Below, in pieces: positions 3,871 through 33,775 of a DNA stretch of 64,000 bases. The notes below the pieces were generated by a model. That model was not told the DNA's origin, made no database searches, and was given only the letters and a program-made list of their open reading frames with translations. The DNA is from Escherichia coli. Lineage in GTDB: Bacteria > Pseudomonadota > Gammaproteobacteria > Enterobacterales > Enterobacteriaceae. Both the position numbers and the translations under genes were made by a program. Position 1 is the first letter of the stretch. Each line of letters begins with the position of its first letter. Location of the stretch: NCBI RefSeq assembly GCF_024502345.1, contig NZ_JALDNN010000001.1; one strand, 5' to 3'.

Positions 3871-6135
<2,265 letters not shown>

Positions 6136-6231
6136 GTTAGACGTTCTTTAAAAATAAGGAAATGTTTTAATTTAGTTGGTAGATTGTTGATGCGGAATAA
6201 ATTTGTTTAAAAACAGTTATGTATGCTTAGT
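6136..6231 (+). promoter_or_regulatory. AT-rich CRISPR leader immediately upstream of first repeat
   Basis: AT-rich tract (…taaaaataaggaaatgttttaatttagttggtagattgttgatgcggaataaatttgtttaaaaacagttatgtatgcttagt) abutting repeat 1; orientation consistent with repeat sense strand. Confidence 0.55.
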
Positions 6232-6443
6232 GTGTTCCCCGCGCCAGCGGGGATAAACCGGGGCCGACGGTCGCAGTATTGGACCATTTCAAGTGTTCCC
6301 CGCGCCAGCGGGGATAAACCGACTCTTACATGCTTAATCAGATTCTGGCGGATGTGTTCCCCGCGCCAGCGGGGATAAACCGGGCGCACTGGATGCGATG
6401 ATGGATATCACTTAGAATTCCCCGCCCCTGCGGTAGAACTCCC
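6232..6443 (+). CRISPR. Short type I-E CRISPR array: 4 repeats (last degenerate), 3 spacers of 32 bp
   Basis: 29-bp repeat GTGTTCCCCGCGCCAGCGGGGATAAACCG at 6232-6260, 6293-6321, 6354-6382; degenerate terminal repeat gaattccccgcccctgcggtagaactccc at 6415-6443; spacers 6261-6292, 6322-6353, 6383-6414. Confidence 0.92.
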
Positions 6444-16530: not shown

Positions 16531-17523
16531 ATGAGTCAGAATACGCTGAAAGTTCATGATTTAAATGAAGATGCGGAATTTGATGAGAACGGAGTTGAGG
16601 TTTTTGACGAAAAGGCCTTAGTAGAAGAGGAACCCAGTGATAACGATTTGGCCGAAGAGGAACTGTTATCGCAGGGAGCCACACAGCGTGTGTTGGACGC
16701 GACTCAGCTTTACCTTGGTGAGATTGGTTATTCACCACTGTTAACGGCCGAAGAAGAAGTTTATTTTGCGCGTCGCGCACTGCGTGGAGATGTCGCCTCT
16801 CGCCGCCGGATGATCGAGAGTAACTTGCGTCTGGTGGTAAAAATTGCCCGCCGTTATGGCAATCGTGGTCTGGCGTTGCTGGACCTTATCGAAGAGGGCA
16901 ACCTGGGGCTGATTCGCGCGGTAGAGAAGTTTGACCCGGAACGTGGTTTCCGCTTCTCAACATACGCAACCTGGTGGATTCGCCAGACGATTGAACGGGC
17001 GATTATGAACCAAACCCGTACTATTCGTTTGCCGATTCACATCGTAAAGGAGCTGAACGTTTACCTGCGAACCGCACGTGAGTTGTCCCATAAGCTGGAC
17101 CATGAACCAAGTGCGGAAGAGATCGCAGAGCAACTGGATAAGCCAGTTGATGACGTCAGCCGTATGCTTCGTCTTAACGAGCGCATTACCTCGGTAGACA
17201 CCCCGCTGGGTGGTGATTCCGAAAAAGCGTTGCTGGACATCCTGGCCGATGAAAAAGAGAACGGTCCGGAAGATACCACGCAAGATGACGATATGAAGCA
17301 GAGCATCGTCAAATGGCTGTTCGAGCTGAACGCCAAACAGCGTGAAGTACTGGCACGTCGATTCGGTTTGCTGGGGTACGAAGCGGCAACACTGGAAGAT
17401 GTAGGTCGTGAAATTGGCCTCACCCGTGAACGTGTTCGCCAGATTCAGGTTGAAGGCCTGCGCCGTTTGCGCGAAATCCTGCAAACGCAGGGGCTGAATA
17501 TCGAAGCGCTGTTCCGCGAATAA
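16531..17523 (+). CDS. rpoS: RNA polymerase sigma factor RpoS (sigma-38), apparently full length
   Basis: start at ATG 16531 ([21 protein letters not shown]...), 330 aa, no internal stop. Confidence 0.96.
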
Positions 17524-17643: not shown

Positions 17644-18084
17644 CTATGTGCTCATCATCTTGCGCACCAACTGCATAAACAGCTCCTGCTCTTCTACACT
17701 CAAACGCCCCAAAAATTCCTCATCCACGCGGTCACCAATCGGTATCGCCGCAGCAAGTATCTTTTCTCCTTCGGCAGTCAGCCAGACAAAGCGTCGCCGC
17801 TTATCAGCGGCGTCATGTTCACGTCTGACTAAGCCACGATTTTCCATTCTTGCCAACATTTCTGCCAGCGTTGCTTTGGTGCTGACTGCTGCTTCTATCA
17901 GTGCCACCTGTTCGATACCAGGCTTATCAGCAATGGCACGCATCACCGCATACTGTGGTTTGGTCAGGTCAGGTAACTCGTGCTGCCAGCGAGCCGTGTG
18001 CTGCTGAAAAAGCTGTCGTAACTGATGGAACGCTTTATTTCGTAACGCCATGTAAACTCCGGGCAAACTATCTGCCGCTATCAT
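17644..18084 (-). CDS. MarR/SlyA-family transcriptional regulator (rpoS-mutS variable region)
   Basis: 146-aa ORF (start possibly at internal MALRNK); winged-helix MarR-like sequence; divergent from decarboxylase cluster. Confidence 0.72.
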   Translation of the reverse strand: MIAADSLPGVYMALRNKAFHQLRQLFQQHTARWQHELPDLTKPQYAVMRAIADKPGIEQVALIEAAVSTKATLAEMLARMENRGLVRREHDAADKRRRFVWLTAEGEKILAAAIPIGDRVDEEFLGRLSVEEQELFMQLVRKMMST

Positions 18085-18197
18085 AACGGTTTTTCAGTGA
18101 CGAAGGGGATGTTGTTACTTTTCAGTGCTTGCCGCAATGAGAACAGAGGCGTATTTTAATAATAACGTTCGTATACGAACAATTAAGAGAGTAAGCA

Positions 18198-18791
18198 ATG
18201 AAACTGATCGTCGGGATGACAGGGGCTACCGGTGCGCCTCTTGGTGTGGCATTACTGCAAGCGCTGCGGGAGATGCCGAATGTCGAGACTCATCTGGTGA
18301 TGTCGAAGTGGGCGAAAACCACCATTGAACTGGAAACGCCTTACAGCGCCCGCGATGTTGCTGCCCTCGCTGACTTCAGCCATAACCCGGCGGATCAGGC
18401 GGCGACCATCTCCTCAGGTTCCTTTCGTACCGACGGCATGATCGTTATTCCGTGCAGTATGAAAACGCTCGCCGGTATCCGCGCTGGTTACGCTGATGGC
18501 CTGGTAGGGCGCGCGGCGGACGTCGTGCTCAAAGAAGGCCGCAAACTGGTGCTGGTGCCGCGTGAAATGCCGCTTAGCACCATCCATCTCGAAAATATGC
18601 TCGCACTTTCACGCATGGGCGTGGCGATGGTGCCGCCGATGCCTGCCTTTTATAACCATCCCGAAACGGTAGATGACATTGTCCACCATGTAGTAGCCCG
18701 CGTGCTGGATCAATTTGGCCTCGAACATCCCCACGCCAGGCGCTGGCAAGGATTGCCGCAGGCCGGGAATTTTTCTCAGGAGAATGAATAA
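18198..18791 (+). CDS. ecdB: UbiX/Pad1-like flavin prenyltransferase
   Basis: 197-aa ORF MKLIVGMTGATGAPLGVALLQALREMPNVETHLVMSKWA... typical UbiX family. Confidence 0.82.
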   Translation: MKLIVGMTGATGAPLGVALLQALREMPNVETHLVMSKWAKTTIELETPYSARDVAALADFSHNPADQAATISSGSFRTDGMIVIPCSMKTLAGIRAGYADGLVGRAADVVLKEGRKLVLVPREMPLSTIHLENMLALSRMGVAMVPPMPAFYNHPETVDDIVHHVVARVLDQFGLEHPHARRWQGLPQAGNFSQENE

Positions 18792-20217
18792 TGGCATTTG
18801 ATGATTTACGCAGCTTTTTACAGGCGCTTGATGACCACGGCCAGTTACTGAAAATCAGCGAAGAGGTGAACGCGGAACCGGATCTGGCTGCCGCTGCCAA
18901 CGCCACCGGGCGTATCGGCGATGGTGCACCGGCGCTGTGGTTTGATAATATTCGCGGTTTTACCGATGCCCGCGTGGCGATGAATACCATCGGTTCCTGG
19001 CAGAACCACGCGATTTCCCTCGGCCTGCCGCCAAACACTCCGGTCAAAAAGCAGATTGATGAGTTTATCCGCCGCTGGGATAACTTCCCGATTGCCCCGG
19101 AGCGCCGCGCCAATCCTGCCTGGGCGCAGAACACCGTTGATAGCGACGAGATTAACCTGTTCGATATCCTGCCGCTGTTTCGTTTAAACGATGGCGATGG
19201 CGGTTTCTATCTCGACAAAGCGTGCGTGGTTTCCCGCGATCCGCTCGACCCAGATAACTTCGGCAAGCAGAACGTCGGCATCTACCGCATGGAAGTGAAG
19301 GGCAAGCGTAAGCTCGGCCTGCAACCGGTGCCGATGCACGATATCGCCCTGCATCTGCATAAAGCAGAAGAGCGCGGTGAAGATCTGCCGATTGCGATCA
19401 CGCTCGGTAACGATCCGATCATCACGCTGATGGGGGCCACGCCGCTGAAATACGATCAGTCTGAGTATGAAATGGCAGGCGCGCTGCGTGAAAGCCCGTA
19501 CCCGATCGCCACCGCCCCGCTGACCGGTTTTGATGTGCCGTGGGGTTCAGAAGTGATCCTCGAAGGGGTCATCAAAAGCCGTAAACGCGAAATCGAGGGG
19601 CCGTTCGGTGAGTTTACCGGGCACTACTCCGGCGGGCGTAACATGACCGTGGTGCGTATCGATAAAGTCTCTTACCGCACCAGGCCGATTTTCGAATCGC
19701 TGTACCTCGGCATGCCGTGGACCGAAATCGACTACCTGATGGGGCCAGCCACCTGCGTACCGCTGTATCAACAACTGAAAGCCGAGTTCCCGGAAGTGCA
19801 GGCGGTAAACGCCATGTACACCCACGGCCTGCTGGCGATTATCTCCACCAAAAAACGCTACGGCGGCTTTGCCCGCGGGTGGGCCTGCGTGCGATGACCA
19901 CGCCGCACGGTCTGGGCTACGTAAAGATGGTGATTATGGTCGATGAAGACGTTGACCCGTTCAACCTGCCGCAGGTGATGTGGGCGCTCTCCTCGAAAGT
20001 GAACCCGGCAGGGGATTTGGTGCAGTTGCCGAATATGTCCGTGCTGGAACTCGACCCAGGCTCAAGCCCGGCAGGGATCACCGACAAGCTGATTATCGAC
20101 GCCACCACGCCTGTTGCCCCGGACAACCGTGGTCACTACAGCCAGCCGGTGGTGGATTTGCCGGAAACCAAAGCCTGGGCTGAAAAACTGACCACTATGC
20201 TGGCTGCACGTAAATAA
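18791..20217 (+). pseudogene. ecdC: UbiD-family (hydroxyaryl acid) decarboxylase, interrupted by a frameshift near 19877
   Basis: two overlapping ORFs in different frames (18791..19897 and 19717..20217) together form one UbiD-like protein; joining sequence gcccgcgggtgggcctgcgtgcgatg suggests a 1-bp deletion. Confidence 0.75.
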
Positions 20218-20503: not shown

Positions 20504-21868
20504 TCAAATTACCGCCCATACGCACCAGGTAATTAAGAATCCGGTAAAACCGAGAATGGTCGTTAACACTGTCCAGGTTTTCAGACCGTCTGCTACCGAC
20601 AACCCCAGATATTTGGTCACAATCCAGAACCCTGAGTCATTAATATGTGACGCGCCAAGCCCACCAAAGCAGGCTGCCAGCGTCACCAATACGCACTGAA
20701 TCGGATTCAATCCCATCACCGCTTCTGAGAGTAACCCGCCGGTTGTCAGGATTGCTACGGTTGCTGACCCCTGCGATGCACGCAGCGCCAGTGAAATAAT
20801 AAATGCGGCTGGTAACAGAGGCAGGTCAATCATTTGTAGCATGTTGGCAAGGGCTTTGCCGACGCCCGATTCCACCAGCACTTTGCCAAATACCCCTCCA
20901 GCACCAGTAACCAAAATCACTACCGCCGCAGTGGGAAGGGCTGAGCCCATAATGTCGCTGGTGTGTTGTAAGCTCCAGCCGCGACGTAAAGCCAATAACC
21001 AGAATGCCAGCACCAGCGCAATCATTAGAGCTACCATTGGTGAGCCGATCAGCTGTAGCGTACCAAGCAGGGGATGCGAAGGCGGCATCAGTGTTGCGGA
21101 AACCGTACCCGCCATGATAATCGCGATAGGAATAACAATTAGCGAGGTGACCAGCGCGACGCCCGGTGGATTTATTTTATCGCTTAATTTTGTCGCGCCT
21201 TCCTCACTGGCCGGAGCCAGTTGCATCTGTTCCAGTACTTCCACCGACATCGCATATTGGCGTTTATTGATTATTTTCGCTGCAAAGTAGCCAACAACCC
21301 CTACGGGAATAGAAATCGCAATACCGATGATGGTTAGCCAGCCGATGTCTGCGTGGAGTAACCCCGCTGCGGCGACAGGGCCTGGATGCGGCGGTACCGC
21401 CACGTGAACAGTGAGCATGATCCCAGCGACAGGCAGGCCAAATTTGAGTGGCGATATTTTGGCTACCTTGGCAAAACCGTAAATGATTGGCGCAAGAATA
21501 ATAAAGCCGACATCAAAGAAGACGGGAATACCGAGGAAGAACGCTGCCAGAGTCAGCGCAGCGATAGTTCGTTTGTCACCTAACTTGCGACTGAAATAAT
21601 TAGCCAGTGATTCTGCACCACCAGAGTGTTCGATCATACGCCCCAGCATAGCGCCCAGACCAATAATAATAGTGACGGAACCAAGCACACCGCCCATCCC
21701 GGCGATCATCACTTTACCCACTTCGCCCGCCGGTATACCCGCCGCAAGTGCGACTAACAGGCTGACGAGGAGCAGAGCAACGAATGGTTGTACCTTTGCC
21801 TTGATGACCAGCAGCAACAGCATGATTACGCCAGCTAACGCAATGCATAACAATGTAATTGTGGACAT
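20504..21868 (-). CDS. ygbN: GntP-family permease
   Basis: 454-aa polytopic membrane ORF, GntP family. Confidence 0.85.
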   Translation of the reverse strand: MSTITLLCIALAGVIMLLLLVIKAKVQPFVALLLVSLLVALAAGIPAGEVGKVMIAGMGGVLGSVTIIIGLGAMLGRMIEHSGGAESLANYFSRKLGDKRTIAALTLAAFFLGIPVFFDVGFIILAPIIYGFAKVAKISPLKFGLPVAGIMLTVHVAVPPHPGPVAAAGLLHADIGWLTIIGIAISIPVGVVGYFAAKIINKRQYAMSVEVLEQMQLAPASEEGATKLSDKINPPGVALVTSLIVIPIAIIMAGTVSATLMPPSHPLLGTLQLIGSPMVALMIALVLAFWLLALRRGWSLQHTSDIMGSALPTAAVVILVTGAGGVFGKVLVESGVGKALANMLQMIDLPLLPAAFIISLALRASQGSATVAILTTGGLLSEAVMGLNPIQCVLVTLAACFGGLGASHINDSGFWIVTKYLGLSVADGLKTWTVLTTILGFTGFLITWCVWAVI

Positions 21869-21956
21869 GGGAAACCCTGTCTGAAAGTTATAGTTAACCT
21901 ACCCCATCCGTAGATGGGGGGATGTATGGGTACGTTGTAATTAGGGATTTAACGAA

Positions 21957-22733
21957 TTAGCGCCAGGCGTCAAACCAGCCAAGCCCTTCTTCGGTGAGGC
22001 CACGAGGTTTATATTCACAACCGATCCAGCCCTGATATCCCACCTCATCGAACAGGCGGAACAGCCACGGATAGTTGATTTCTCCATCGTCCGGTTCATG
22101 TCGATCAGGTAGTCCGGCAATTTGTACGTGCGCATATTTCCCAGCGTAGTCGCGGATTAAATGCGTCAGGTTGCCATCTACTTTTTGCGCATGAAAAGTA
22201 TCTAGTTGAATAAACACGTTATCTCGCGCAACCTCTTCAACAATAGCCAGTGCCTGATACTGGCTGGAGAAGAGATAATGAGGCTTAACGTCGGGGCTGA
22301 GTGCTTCAACTAATATTCGCTTGCCGTGTAGCGCAAAGCGGTCGGCCGCGTAGCGGAGATTATCGATAAATACTGCCCGGTACCGTTCAGCGTCTTCGCC
22401 AGCGGGCACGACGCCTGCCATCACATGGACTTGTTCACAATTGAGCGCCAATGCATATTCCAGTGCCAGGTCGATGTCTGCGTGTGCTTCGTGCTCACGT
22501 CCGGGAAGGGCGGATAATCCCCATTCCCCCGCATTAATATCTCCGGGAGCGGTATTGAACAGCGCCAGTGTCAGATGGTTTTGCTCCAGTTGCTTTTGGA
22601 TTTGCAGGGTGGAGTAGTCATAGGGAAACAGAAATTCCACAGCATCGAACCCGGCTTTTCGCGCTGCGGCGAAGCGTTCAATAAAAGGCACTTCGGTGAA
22701 CATCATGGATAAATTAGCTGCAAAACGAGGCAT
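21957..22733 (-). CDS. ygbM: Hydroxypyruvate isomerase-like (TIM-barrel)
   Basis: 258-aa ORF, xylose-isomerase-like TIM barrel; ygb operon position. Confidence 0.85.
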
Positions 22734-22737
22734 TGCA

Positions 22738-23376
22738 TTAACTCCTTAATTCCGCAATTTCACCTGCGGTCAGATAACGGATCGGGCGGTCACCGAGAAT
22801 AAAAATCAGCTTTGCCGTTTCCTCCAGCTCTTCCATATTGTTGGCGGCTTCTTGCAGGCTTTCACCGCAAACCACTGGGCCATGATTTGCCAGTAAAAAA
22901 GCCTGATTGTCTGCTGCCAGTTCCGCCAGATCCTGTGCGATGCGTTTATCGCCCGGTCGGTAATAAGGCACCAGCGGGACATTTCCCATCCGCATCACCA
23001 CGTATGGTGTGAACGGACGAATAACGTTGCTGCTGTCCAGCCCTTGCAGGCAGGAAAGCGCCGTCGACCATGTGCTGTGCAAATGCACCACCGCTTTACA
23101 GCGCGGATTGTTGCGATACAGCGCCAGATGAAAGAGCACCTCTTTCGAGGGTTTGTCACCACTTAACCATTCGCCATCCGCGGCGACTTTGGAAAGCCGC
23201 TGCGGATCGAGATTGCCCAGGCATGAACCTGTCGGTGTCGCCAGTAAATTCCCGTCAGGTAAAAGCAGCGACAGATTGCCAGCCGAACCGGTTGCATAGC
23301 CGCGCTGAAAGAATGAACTGGCAATCCGCGTCATCTCCTCTCGCAAAGACTGCTCTACTTTTGCGAAATCGCTCAT
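22738..23376 (-). CDS. ygbL: Class II aldolase/adducin-family protein
   Basis: 212-aa ORF, class II aldolase fold motifs. Confidence 0.85.
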
Positions 23377-24635
23377 GATAAAAACTCTCTTTGGGCTCGT
23401 GAAAAAAAGGCTTCATCACCGAAGTTGCCAGATTTAAGGGCGAGTGAGACAGGCTTATCCAGTGCGTTTACCCACGGCACGCCGGGGGAAATGGTTGGGC
23501 CAATATGAAACCCTTTTATGCCCAGGCTCTGTGTGACTACGCCGGAGGTCTCACCGCCTGCGACAATAAAGCGTGTCACGCCTTCCGCTGCTAACCGCGC
23601 CGCTAGTTGAGAAAACAGAGTTTCTACTGCCTGACTGGCTTTTTGTGCACCGTATTGCTGTTGAATTGCTGCCAATGCGTCAGTGCTGGCGGTGGCAAAA
23701 ACCAGTGGAGCAAGTACACTTTCCTGGCCCAGAACCCACTCTGCCAGTTCGTGTGCATAAGCGGCCAGAGTTTCGGTTGAGAGGCAGCGTGCCACATCAA
23801 CTTCACGGGCTGGTGCAATTTGACGGTAATGTGCCACCTGGCGGTTGGTCATTTGAGAGCATGAACCGGAGAGCACTACGCCGCGCCCAGCGAGCGGACG
23901 CCCTGCTTCGCGAGCCTGGTTACCGTTTTCTTGCGCCCACTGCCGGGCCAGGCCAATCGCCAGACCAGAACCGCCCGTTACCAGTGGGGCATCGCGCAAG
24001 GCTTCTCCCTGAATTTCCAGATGGTGTTCGGTCAGCGCATCAAGCACCGCGTAGCGGTAGCCTTCTTGCTGTAAGCGAGCCAGCTCTTGACGAACGGCAT
24101 CCACACCTTGTTCGAAAACATGTGCCGAAACGACGCCGCAGCGCCCTGTGGATTGCGCTTCAACCAGACGGGGAAGATAGCTGTCGGTCATGGGATTTAC
24201 CGGGTGATGGCGCATCCCGGATTCGGCCAGCAGTTGATTCATTACGAACAAATACCCCTGATAAACCGTACGTCCGTTGACCGGCAGGGCCGGAGAGAAG
24301 ACCGTAAACGGCGTGTCGAGAGCATCCATTAATGCATCGGTAACCGGGCCAATATTACCTTTCGCCGTACTGTCGAAAGTAGAGCAGTATTTGAAATAGA
24401 TCTGTTTGCAACCTTGCTGTTGCAACCAGCTCAGAGCCGCCAGCGATTGCTGTGTGGCTTCAACCACCGGACAGGAGCGCGTTTTCAGGCTGATCACCAG
24501 TGCGTCGATTGCTTCCGGCATTTTACCTGTTGGAACACCGTTAATTTGTACCGTTGGTAGACCGTTTTCCACCAGAAAACTGGCGATATCCGTCGCGCCG
24601 GTAAAATCATCGGCGATAACGCCAATCTTGATCAT
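23373..24635 (-). CDS. ygbK: Four-carbon acid sugar kinase family protein
   Basis: 420-aa ORF beginning MIKIGVIADDFTGATD (DUF1537-type N-terminus). Confidence 0.83.
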   Translation of the reverse strand: MIKIGVIADDFTGATDIASFLVENGLPTVQINGVPTGKMPEAIDALVISLKTRSCPVVEATQQSLAALSWLQQQGCKQIYFKYCSTFDSTAKGNIGPVTDALMDALDTPFTVFSPALPVNGRTVYQGYLFVMNQLLAESGMRHHPVNPMTDSYLPRLVEAQSTGRCGVVSAHVFEQGVDAVRQELARLQQEGYRYAVLDALTEHHLEIQGEALRDAPLVTGGSGLAIGLARQWAQENGNQAREAGRPLAGRGVVLSGSCSQMTNRQVAHYRQIAPAREVDVARCLSTETLAAYAHELAEWVLGQESVLAPLVFATASTDALAAIQQQYGAQKASQAVETLFSQLAARLAAEGVTRFIVAGGETSGVVTQSLGIKGFHIGPTISPGVPWVNALDKPVSLALKSGNFGDEAFFSRAQREFLS

Positions 24636-31375: not shown

Positions 31376-32161
31376 TTTGCCAATTAGATGTCCAATCATT
31401 TCGTTACATCAAAGTTGTGCTTAATTTTTATTTTATAAGGATAATATGGATATTTTTTCTGGAGAATCAATTCTTTCCCAAGTCCCTGATGTCAATCATT
31501 GGTTAGCTTCTTACGGCTTGAATTCAACTACATCAAGATATAGCAGATATATCTCTTATATTGATGCTTTTTTTGAGTCGAAAGATCCCACCTCATCTGA
31601 TGGAAGAGACAAATTTGATTTATTAACCAAGTCGTATGCAGAAATTATAGAAATAGTCAGCGTTAAAAAAGCGTTTGAACATGAAAGAAGCCCCGGATTT
31701 ATTGAGCGTTTAAGTAAGGTTGTTTCTGGAGTTGATCATGTTGGTATTAAAGAACCCAGTGAGCCAAGGAATTTTCTCTACGAATTACTTATGGCTGCCC
31801 GGCTAAAAAATGCTGGCTTTATTATTGATTTTGACCAAGGAACTGATGTTGTCGCATATGGATTTGGTCGTGCTATTTTCGTTGAATGTAAACGCACAAC
31901 ATCAATAAGAGGGTTCGAATCTAATTTCATTAAAGGTGGAAAGCAATTAGAGAGAAAGTTTAAGAGTACGAAACTTCCCCATTTTATGATTCGGGGATTT
32001 ATTGCTATCGATGTTTTACCATATGTATTGAACGATATTCCTAAATTTGAAATAGATAATGAAATGGAAGCTCGCATTTGTGCCAGGATAGTGATGGAAC
32101 GTTTTAAGCAAGATGCAAGTAGGCATATTAATAAGTATATATCACGTTATGAAAATGTTAG

Positions 32162-33356
<1,195 letters not shown>

Positions 33357-33775
33357 TTAGTGCAGGGGTGGTGATAATGGCGATGATACCTGTTTGGTTG
33401 CGTGATGTTATATTACTTCATGTTAATGAAATAGCTCATGTAATTCCTCCATCAACTAACACAGAAGATGTAGGTGAAGTCATATTTTTAGCCGAGAAGT
33501 TAAGCTATCCGCTACTTCCTGATTTTTAGTGTGAGTTAAAAGTTGATAGATCAAAAGTGTGTTTTTTTAGATTATATACTTGGATCCAAGCAGTGCTAAG
33601 GTTATTTCCTTAGCTCACTCATAACTAAATAGATATTTAGCTAGGGGGGACGATCAAACGTTAGCTCCTAGCTCATAACGGACGAACTGAGATATTTGTG
33701 CCCTGTAGAAGAGCACATCGACAGATAAAATTTCGACTGATACGGGGTTCGCTAACTGATGCCAGACAGGGCCAC

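Follow-up and report, generated by a model that had tools for sequence, protein, structure and literature searches.

A single-base deletion that very probably makes ecdC a pseudogene in one lineage of Escherichia coli

We conclude that a real, heritable deletion of one base has very probably turned ecdC into a pseudogene in one lineage of Escherichia coli. The gene would encode the UbiD-family catalytic subunit of EcdBCD, a putative prFMN-dependent 4-hydroxybenzoate/vanillate decarboxylase of the VdcBCD/KpdBCD type in the polymorphic rpoS-mutS region. Codon 363, which lies within the palindrome CCGCGCGG, has lost a C, truncating the protein after 362 native residues, and the deletion has been inherited together with a linked private SNP, 19574A. 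The resulting 368-aa product would retain the prFMN-binding domain and the E-R-E residues and is predicted to have lost decarboxylase activity. Such a loss was presumably tolerated because the cluster is accessory, being absent from ~55% of E. coli, and ecdB and ecdD are probably still intact because the lesion is recent. The deletion is an ordinary, recent and lineage-specific frameshift in a known accessory cluster.

The ecd locus and its frameshift

The window, by which we mean the whole 64-kb stretch of DNA that was analysed, follows the E. coli chromosome from cysH through a cas remnant, iap and cysDNC to nlpD and rpoS (16531-17523). The ecd cluster adjoins rpoS and consists of a divergent MarR/SlyA-like gene followed by ecdB, ecdC (18791-20217) and ecdD. 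Beyond the 3′ end of ecdD lie ygbN through mutS, an integrase-bearing island and the hyp/hyc genes. The presence/absence patterns of the mutS-rpoS region, which is known for gene loss, were set out by Ewers et al., whose 'pattern IV' arrangement contains kpdD, kpdC, kpdB and slyA (PMC4209514). The features of the cluster in the window are as follows.

17644-18051, minus strand: MarR/SlyA-like regulator of the ecd cluster ('slyA'/kpdR in older literature); intact, divergent from ecdB, with MarR-family matches
18198-18791, plus strand: ecdB, UbiX-family flavin prenyltransferase (subunit B), 197 aa; intact, NF041206 VdcB 312 bits against a cut-off of 290
18791-19897, plus strand: ecdC 5′ fragment, 368 aa; 362 native codons, 6 out-of-frame codons (GWACVR) and TGA
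19574, plus strand: private SNP 19574A (E262K) in ecdC
19877-19878, plus strand: site of the 1-bp deletion; the missing C is the middle base of codon 363, within wild-type CCGCGCGG
19894-20217, plus strand: ecdC 3′ remnant in the native frame, from Met369 to the native stop, 107 aa
20228-20464, plus strand: ecdD, zinc-ribbon small subunit D, 78 aa; intact, NF041205 VdcD 120.5 bits against a cut-off of 30

The 135-aa CDS of the regulator is annotated in close genomes and was called in all deletion-bearing loci that reach it, and ecdB is annotated as subunit B in relatives. EcdD carries two CXXC motifs (C3-x2-C6 and C28-x2-C31) and its gene has a strong Shine-Dalgarno (SD) sequence of its own, AAGGAG (dG -9.3). 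Thus ecdC has both neighbours of a VdcBCD-type catalytic subunit directly beside it, a UbiX-family B and a zinc-ribbon D with two CXXC motifs. A first-pass annotation of this DNA had taken the UbiX-like and small subunits to be intact, and ecdB (197 aa) and ecdD (78 aa) indeed pass their family cut-offs.

The same annotation had described a change of frame in the UbiD-like gene near 19877, and both the reading frames and the family profile agree. The ORF at 18791..19897 (368 aa) terminates ...GGFARGWACVR*, whilst the other frame holds ...VGLRAMTTPHGLGYVKMV... and runs on to 20217. The 368-aa and 107-aa pieces cover consecutive stretches of NF041204, positions 2-362 (E 3e-182) and 361-466 (E 5e-49) of 467. 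Alignment to the two closest genomes gives GCCCGCGCGGTGGGC in the wild type against GCCCGCG-GGTGGGC in the window, so that the C was lost between 19877 and 19878; this is exactly the position proposed from the letters alone, as gcccgcg(c)ggtgggcctg. When the C was put back in silico a single 475-aa ORF resulted. The ecdC span in the window is 1427 bp, compared with 1428 bp in all 40 full-length matches listed, and the comparison with intact orthologues that had been suggested as a check shows wild-type copies retaining the C, with 1428 bp and 475 aa.

We scored each piece against NCBIfam NF041204 (UbiD family, TIGR00148), whose curated VdcC cut-off is 650 bits for the whole protein. The repaired 475-aa protein scores 790 bits, whilst the encoded 368-aa product falls below the cut-off at 606 bits and the 107-aa piece scores 167. 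The ecdC locus is therefore a disrupted member of the VdcC/EcdC family: the gene belongs to it and the encoded product does not qualify.

The lesion site reads GCCCGCGGGTGG with the deletion and CGCGCGG without it, the missing C being flanked by two Gs inside a perfect 8-bp palindrome. The suggestion of a homopolymer-type error does not fit this site, because its context is the alternating CG palindrome CCGCGCGG. We also considered a quasi-palindrome-templated mutation and rejected it: wild type (CCGCGCGG) and mutant (CCCGCGGG) each hold a perfect 8-bp palindrome, and the hairpin is therefore not improved by the change.

Several other features of the window are worth recording. At 3874-6135 (plus strand) a 753-aa ORF is an in-frame Cas3-Cas2e fusion, residues 14-674 matching positions 4-665 of the 878 in the Cas3 profile and residues 678-744 matching positions 20-87 of the 87 in the Cas2e profile; a deletion therefore took out cse1 through cas1. 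A residual type I-E CRISPR array with only three repeats at 61-bp spacing lies at 6231-6384, and at the Cas site strain KMi029 has a full cas3-cas2 operon and a 1.5-kb array. Between mutS and ygbA, at ~29900-51000, there is an island of ~21 kb that, by the KMi029 annotation, contains two integrases, a type I restriction-modification methylase and S subunit, an AAA ATPase, a Fic/DOC protein and toxin-antitoxin fragments. Within it an IS5 family element of 1195 bp (32162-33356; 338-aa transposase ORF at 32194-33210, NF033581, 366 bits) is bordered by a TTAG duplication (32158-32161 and 33357-33360). It has inserted in a hypothetical island gene, the ORF at 31446-32189 is shortened, and KMi029 is without an insertion there. 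The island is rare: the stretch 20400-45000, covering ygbN through mutS and most of the island, was found as a single match with at least 80% coverage in only 5 of the 5426 complete genomes, four of them at 99.5-99.6% identity.

Carriers of the deletion and the ancestral state

An exact-sequence look-up showed that NCBI, ENA and Logan already contain the 368-aa product complete with its GWACVR tail. The NCBI carrier is an isolate assembly (GCA_050022275.1), six carriers are ENA metagenomes (ERZ27268145, ERZ19693311, ERZ27268317, ERZ10621112, ERZ28657917 and ERZ19695678) and the Logan carrier is the assembly of read set SRR10692701. The deletion was confirmed in the DNA of all 8 distinct carrier contigs. 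Their flanks differ from the window at 0, 0, 1, 5, 8, 17, 38 and 45 positions and they are therefore not copies of one dataset; moreover, the submitters differ and the record names suggest different assemblers. The NCBI carrier contig (88,676 bp) would end near 31.6 kb of the window, so that the 64-kb window probably comes from yet another assembly.

All 8 distinct deletion contigs carry 19574A (E262K), compared with 0 of the 9 contigs without the deletion that we examined, and the SNP is absent from the closest complete genomes. The deletion is thus bound to one haplotype family, which points to descent from a single mutation and not to a motif-driven artefact. Conservation of E262 across the enterobacterial alignment is otherwise 90% or more, and E262K may be either a neutral hitch-hiker or a first sign of relaxed constraint.

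The quality of the surrounding assembly can be gauged from the close relatives KMi029 and AHM8C212RI. Over the ~56 kb of the window alignable to them there are six small indels, of which five are intergenic; the sixth, the ecdC deletion, alone lies within a gene. The window assembly is therefore not error-prone. Likewise, no other coding indels were found in the deletion-bearing contigs.

These observations bear on whether the strain might in fact have an intact 475-aa ecdC from which one C was dropped by sequencing or assembly at a GC-rich palindrome. GC-rich palindromes are a context of base-calling problems, and CCGCGCGG, itself a perfect palindrome, has very GC-rich surroundings. The deletion allele also occurs in 0 of 1712 complete genomes, and nearby frameshift alleles in read-set assemblies look artefactual, two of them having extra deletions (L016 and L020) and another containing Ns (L021). 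However, eight distinct contigs, which come from different submitters and are not alike in their flanking SNPs, would all have to contain this same error, in perfect linkage to a private SNP and only within a single haplotype family (identity to the window of 99.3% or more). Thousands of assemblies with the identical 61-bp context read wild type, and a systematic artefact is not expected to be so confined. Neither the window nor the carrier contigs hold any other coding indel. The marks of a sequencing error, namely confinement to one assembly, irreproducibility and further indels, are thus lacking for the ecdC deletion, and we regard such an error as highly unlikely. Where the first-pass annotation had left a genuine pseudogene and a homopolymer-type error side by side, the 8 other contigs strongly favour the genuine mutation and speak against the error. 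In effect, the independent datasets answer in the negative the question of whether resequencing would restore a single ecdC ORF.

All evidence that the deletion is real comes from assemblies, and 6 of the 8 other carriers are metagenome contigs, which may be chimeric between co-occurring strains. Clustered SNP blocks in three loci (L007, L008 and L017) could accordingly be assembly mosaics rather than recombination. The contig from ERZ27268317 (L008/L019) has a dense block of ~20 differences at the equivalent of window 18065-18191, in the marR-ecdB intergenic (promoter) region, and its ecdC 3′ remnant shows five synonymous differences matching other E. coli backgrounds. This pattern reflects either recombination after the deletion or a chimeric metagenome assembly. 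A scan of JGI metagenomes gave 0 matches to the deletion allele, but with only 8 to the wild-type control this zero carries no information.

We then placed the allele against the species as a whole. Among 5426 complete E. coli genomes, ecdC is present in 2415 (2374 full-length) and absent from 3011 (~55%). A 61-bp deletion-bearing probe found 0 exact copies of the deletion allele among the 1712 complete genomes matched. In an even sample of 60 gene-bearing genomes, 56 copies were 1428 bp, 2 were 1422 bp with the frame kept, 1 was cut short and 1 was a remnant. EcdC residues 353-371 are invariant across E. coli, Salmonella, Cronobacter and Enterobacter orthologues, and the ShVdcC structure (S. 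hydroxybenzoicus) aligns straight across the break site. Since nearly all gene-bearing genomes are intact and residues 353-371 are invariant, intact ecdC is the ancestral and normally maintained state, and the deletion allele is rare, young and lineage-specific. KMi029, a close relative on the mutS side, has no cluster, rpoS directly adjoining ygbN; E. coli clearly tolerates being without the enzyme. Apart from a single private non-synonymous SNP there is no sign of decay after the lesion, which is therefore young, too young to gauge selection.

Consequence for the enzyme and alternative readings

The structure of ShVdcC provides a frame for the effect of the truncation. Its prFMN-binding domain comprises residues 1-323 and is followed by a hinge at T325/S326; the core of the hexamer is built from the oligomerisation domains, the active site is found where the two domains meet, and turnover needs domain motion (PMC8379154). 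VdcD, a zinc ribbon, is needed for VdcC activity, and 4-hydroxybenzoate/vanillate decarboxylation is known for homologues of EcdBCD (PMC8379154). In our alignment the ShVdcC hinge corresponds to T321/C322 of the window EcdC. The catalytic E-R-E residues R166, E269 and E274 are all present upstream of the break, E274 being the equivalent of the ShVdcC catalytic E278. The 368-aa chain therefore comprises the prFMN-binding domain in full, the hinge and, of the oligomerisation domain, ~40 residues. The ~107 residues that it lacks, which make up the rest of that domain and the C-terminal helix, are no longer joined to the prFMN-binding domain and are encoded by the 107-aa remnant.

From this architecture the 368-aa product should neither hexamerise nor complete an active site. 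Most of the oligomerisation domain, which would supply the core of the hexamer and one side of the active site, is missing, so that decarboxylase activity has presumably been lost and truncated EcdC is most likely a dead enzyme. Polarity of the premature stop on ecdD is possible. An AlphaFold2 model of the repaired protein (13 close homologues) was unusable, with a mean pLDDT of 28.5 and a pTM of 0.19, and a DSSP helix at 358-369 in that low-confidence model (mean pLDDT 28.5) is a hint only.

The break leaves an arrangement that invites a second reading. The TGA stop at 19895-19897 overlaps the native Met369 ATG at 19894-19896, forming ATGA at 19894-19897, and an SD-like GGGUGG lies 10 nt upstream of that ATG (dG -6.4 kcal/mol). 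The real starts of the operon have SD dG values of -4.9 to -9.3, and if the 24 ATG triplets found in the repaired gene, whatever their frame, are taken for comparison (median -2.45), the -6.4 would come second. Gene callers call the 107-aa ORF. Translation might thus restart at the ATG, and the 368-aa and 107-aa pieces might together with EcdD make an active or partly active decarboxylase from a functional split gene. In keeping with this, the native Met369 would be used, so that six residues are changed (AVGLRA to GWACVR) and none lost; the SD-like site falls within the range of the real starts; and wherever a carrier contig extends over them, both frames are undamaged, as are ecdB and ecdD. 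However, the ATGA overlap arises by chance from the native sequence, its TGA being simply where the shifted frame first meets a stop. Enterobacterial orthologues do not vary in the segment that contains the break and the six substitutions, and this segment lies within the oligomerisation domain and not at a domain boundary. Moreover, the allele is rare and young, so that intact flanking genes carry no weight. To our knowledge no naturally split UbiD enzyme has its break at the position of codon 363. We therefore consider a functional split gene very unlikely. The more specific proposal, that coupled translation through ATGA and GGGUGG yields a natural split UbiD and a working hexameric EcdCD, is very unlikely; if true, it would account for both frames, ecdB and ecdD being intact in all carriers. 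The word pseudogene could overstate the loss if the C-terminal piece is made from the overlapping native ATG.

Other frameshift alleles of ecdC came to light in public assemblies. Shortening of A6 to A5 at window 19850-19855 was seen in strain SI-NP020 and four Logan assemblies (loci L014/L022, L015, L016, L018 and L020). SI-NP020, a bovine isolate from Japan, is L014/L022 (NZ_AP024130.1, 1096204-1097630) and its gene carries the RefSeq label 'frameshifted'. Extension of CCC to CCCC at window 19872-19874 was seen in Logan SRR33768571 (L012). In two of the A5 assemblies (L016 and L020) genes next to ecdC have lost single bases as well, and the L021 locus includes Ns. We rejected a recurrent inactivation hotspot as a firm claim, A5 being found in 1 of 2307 complete genomes and some carriers being error-prone assemblies. 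One A5 locus (L018, Logan ERR499301) also has a ~3 kb deletion, equivalent to window 21031-24074, that fuses ygbN to otnK with ygbM and ygbL gone, another gene loss in the rpoS-mutS region.

Three 1-bp indel alleles within 30 bp (the C deletion, A6 to A5 and CCC to CCCC) might suggest programmed recoding or phase variation, with slippage bypassing the frameshift or the site acting as a reversible contingency locus. However, this clustering is a matter of ascertainment, since an exact look-up with the 107-aa remnant finds only lesions near Met369, and the assemblies behind several of the other alleles are prone to error. Recoding would need a -1 shift at C GCG GGU, where there is no slippery heptamer of the form X XXY YYZ, and a long A or T run for transcriptional slippage is absent. 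Known contingency repeats are far longer than the tracts at the ecdC site. Moreover, the shifted arrangement is not conserved, the C deletion occurring in 0 of 1712 and A5 in 1 of 2307 complete genomes. Recoding or phase variation is therefore almost certainly not at work here, and a heritable frameshift mutation remains the reading that we prefer.

Implications and comparison with known systems

If ecdC has indeed been inactivated by mutation, it should be labelled a frameshifted pseudogene in the carrier lineage and not 'corrected'. We predict that carriers cannot use EcdBCD to decarboxylate 4-hydroxybenzoate or vanillate. The lesion would be a further case of the ongoing loss of the phenolic-acid decarboxylase cluster from the rpoS-mutS variable region, and the deletion together with 19574A offers a handy marker for a lineage found in several metagenome assemblies. 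In addition, an exact-sequence look-up of a truncated product in public assemblies can replace read-level inspection.

The locus resembles the EcdBCD, KpdBCD, VdcBCD and BsdBCD systems in having a MarR-type regulator, a UbiX-like B, a UbiD-like C and a zinc-ribbon D, and it occupies the same chromosomal place as the 'pattern IV' o454-nlpD region of EPEC-type E. coli (PMC4209514). Repaired EcdC is similar to ShVdcC (PDB 7AE4/7AE5/7AE7) from end to end (E 1e-160, residues 3-471) with the ERE residues conserved. Unlike in VdcBCD, the C subunit of the window is broken at codon 363 and is without most of its oligomerisation domain. The nearest parallel to the lesion that we found is ecdC of SI-NP020 (NZ_AP024130.1, FFK26_RS05350), whose deposited sequence likewise lacks 1 bp and has the same stop codon and the same 107-aa leftover ORF. 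However, the SI-NP020 lesion is a homopolymer change, A6 to A5, that lies 27 bp upstream on a ~97.6% identical background. In the predicted outcome the carrier lineage is like the K-12-like and pattern II/III strains, which are without the cluster and have no EcdBCD decarboxylase (PMC4209514). It differs from them in that its loss is a point frameshift, the cluster being otherwise physically kept.
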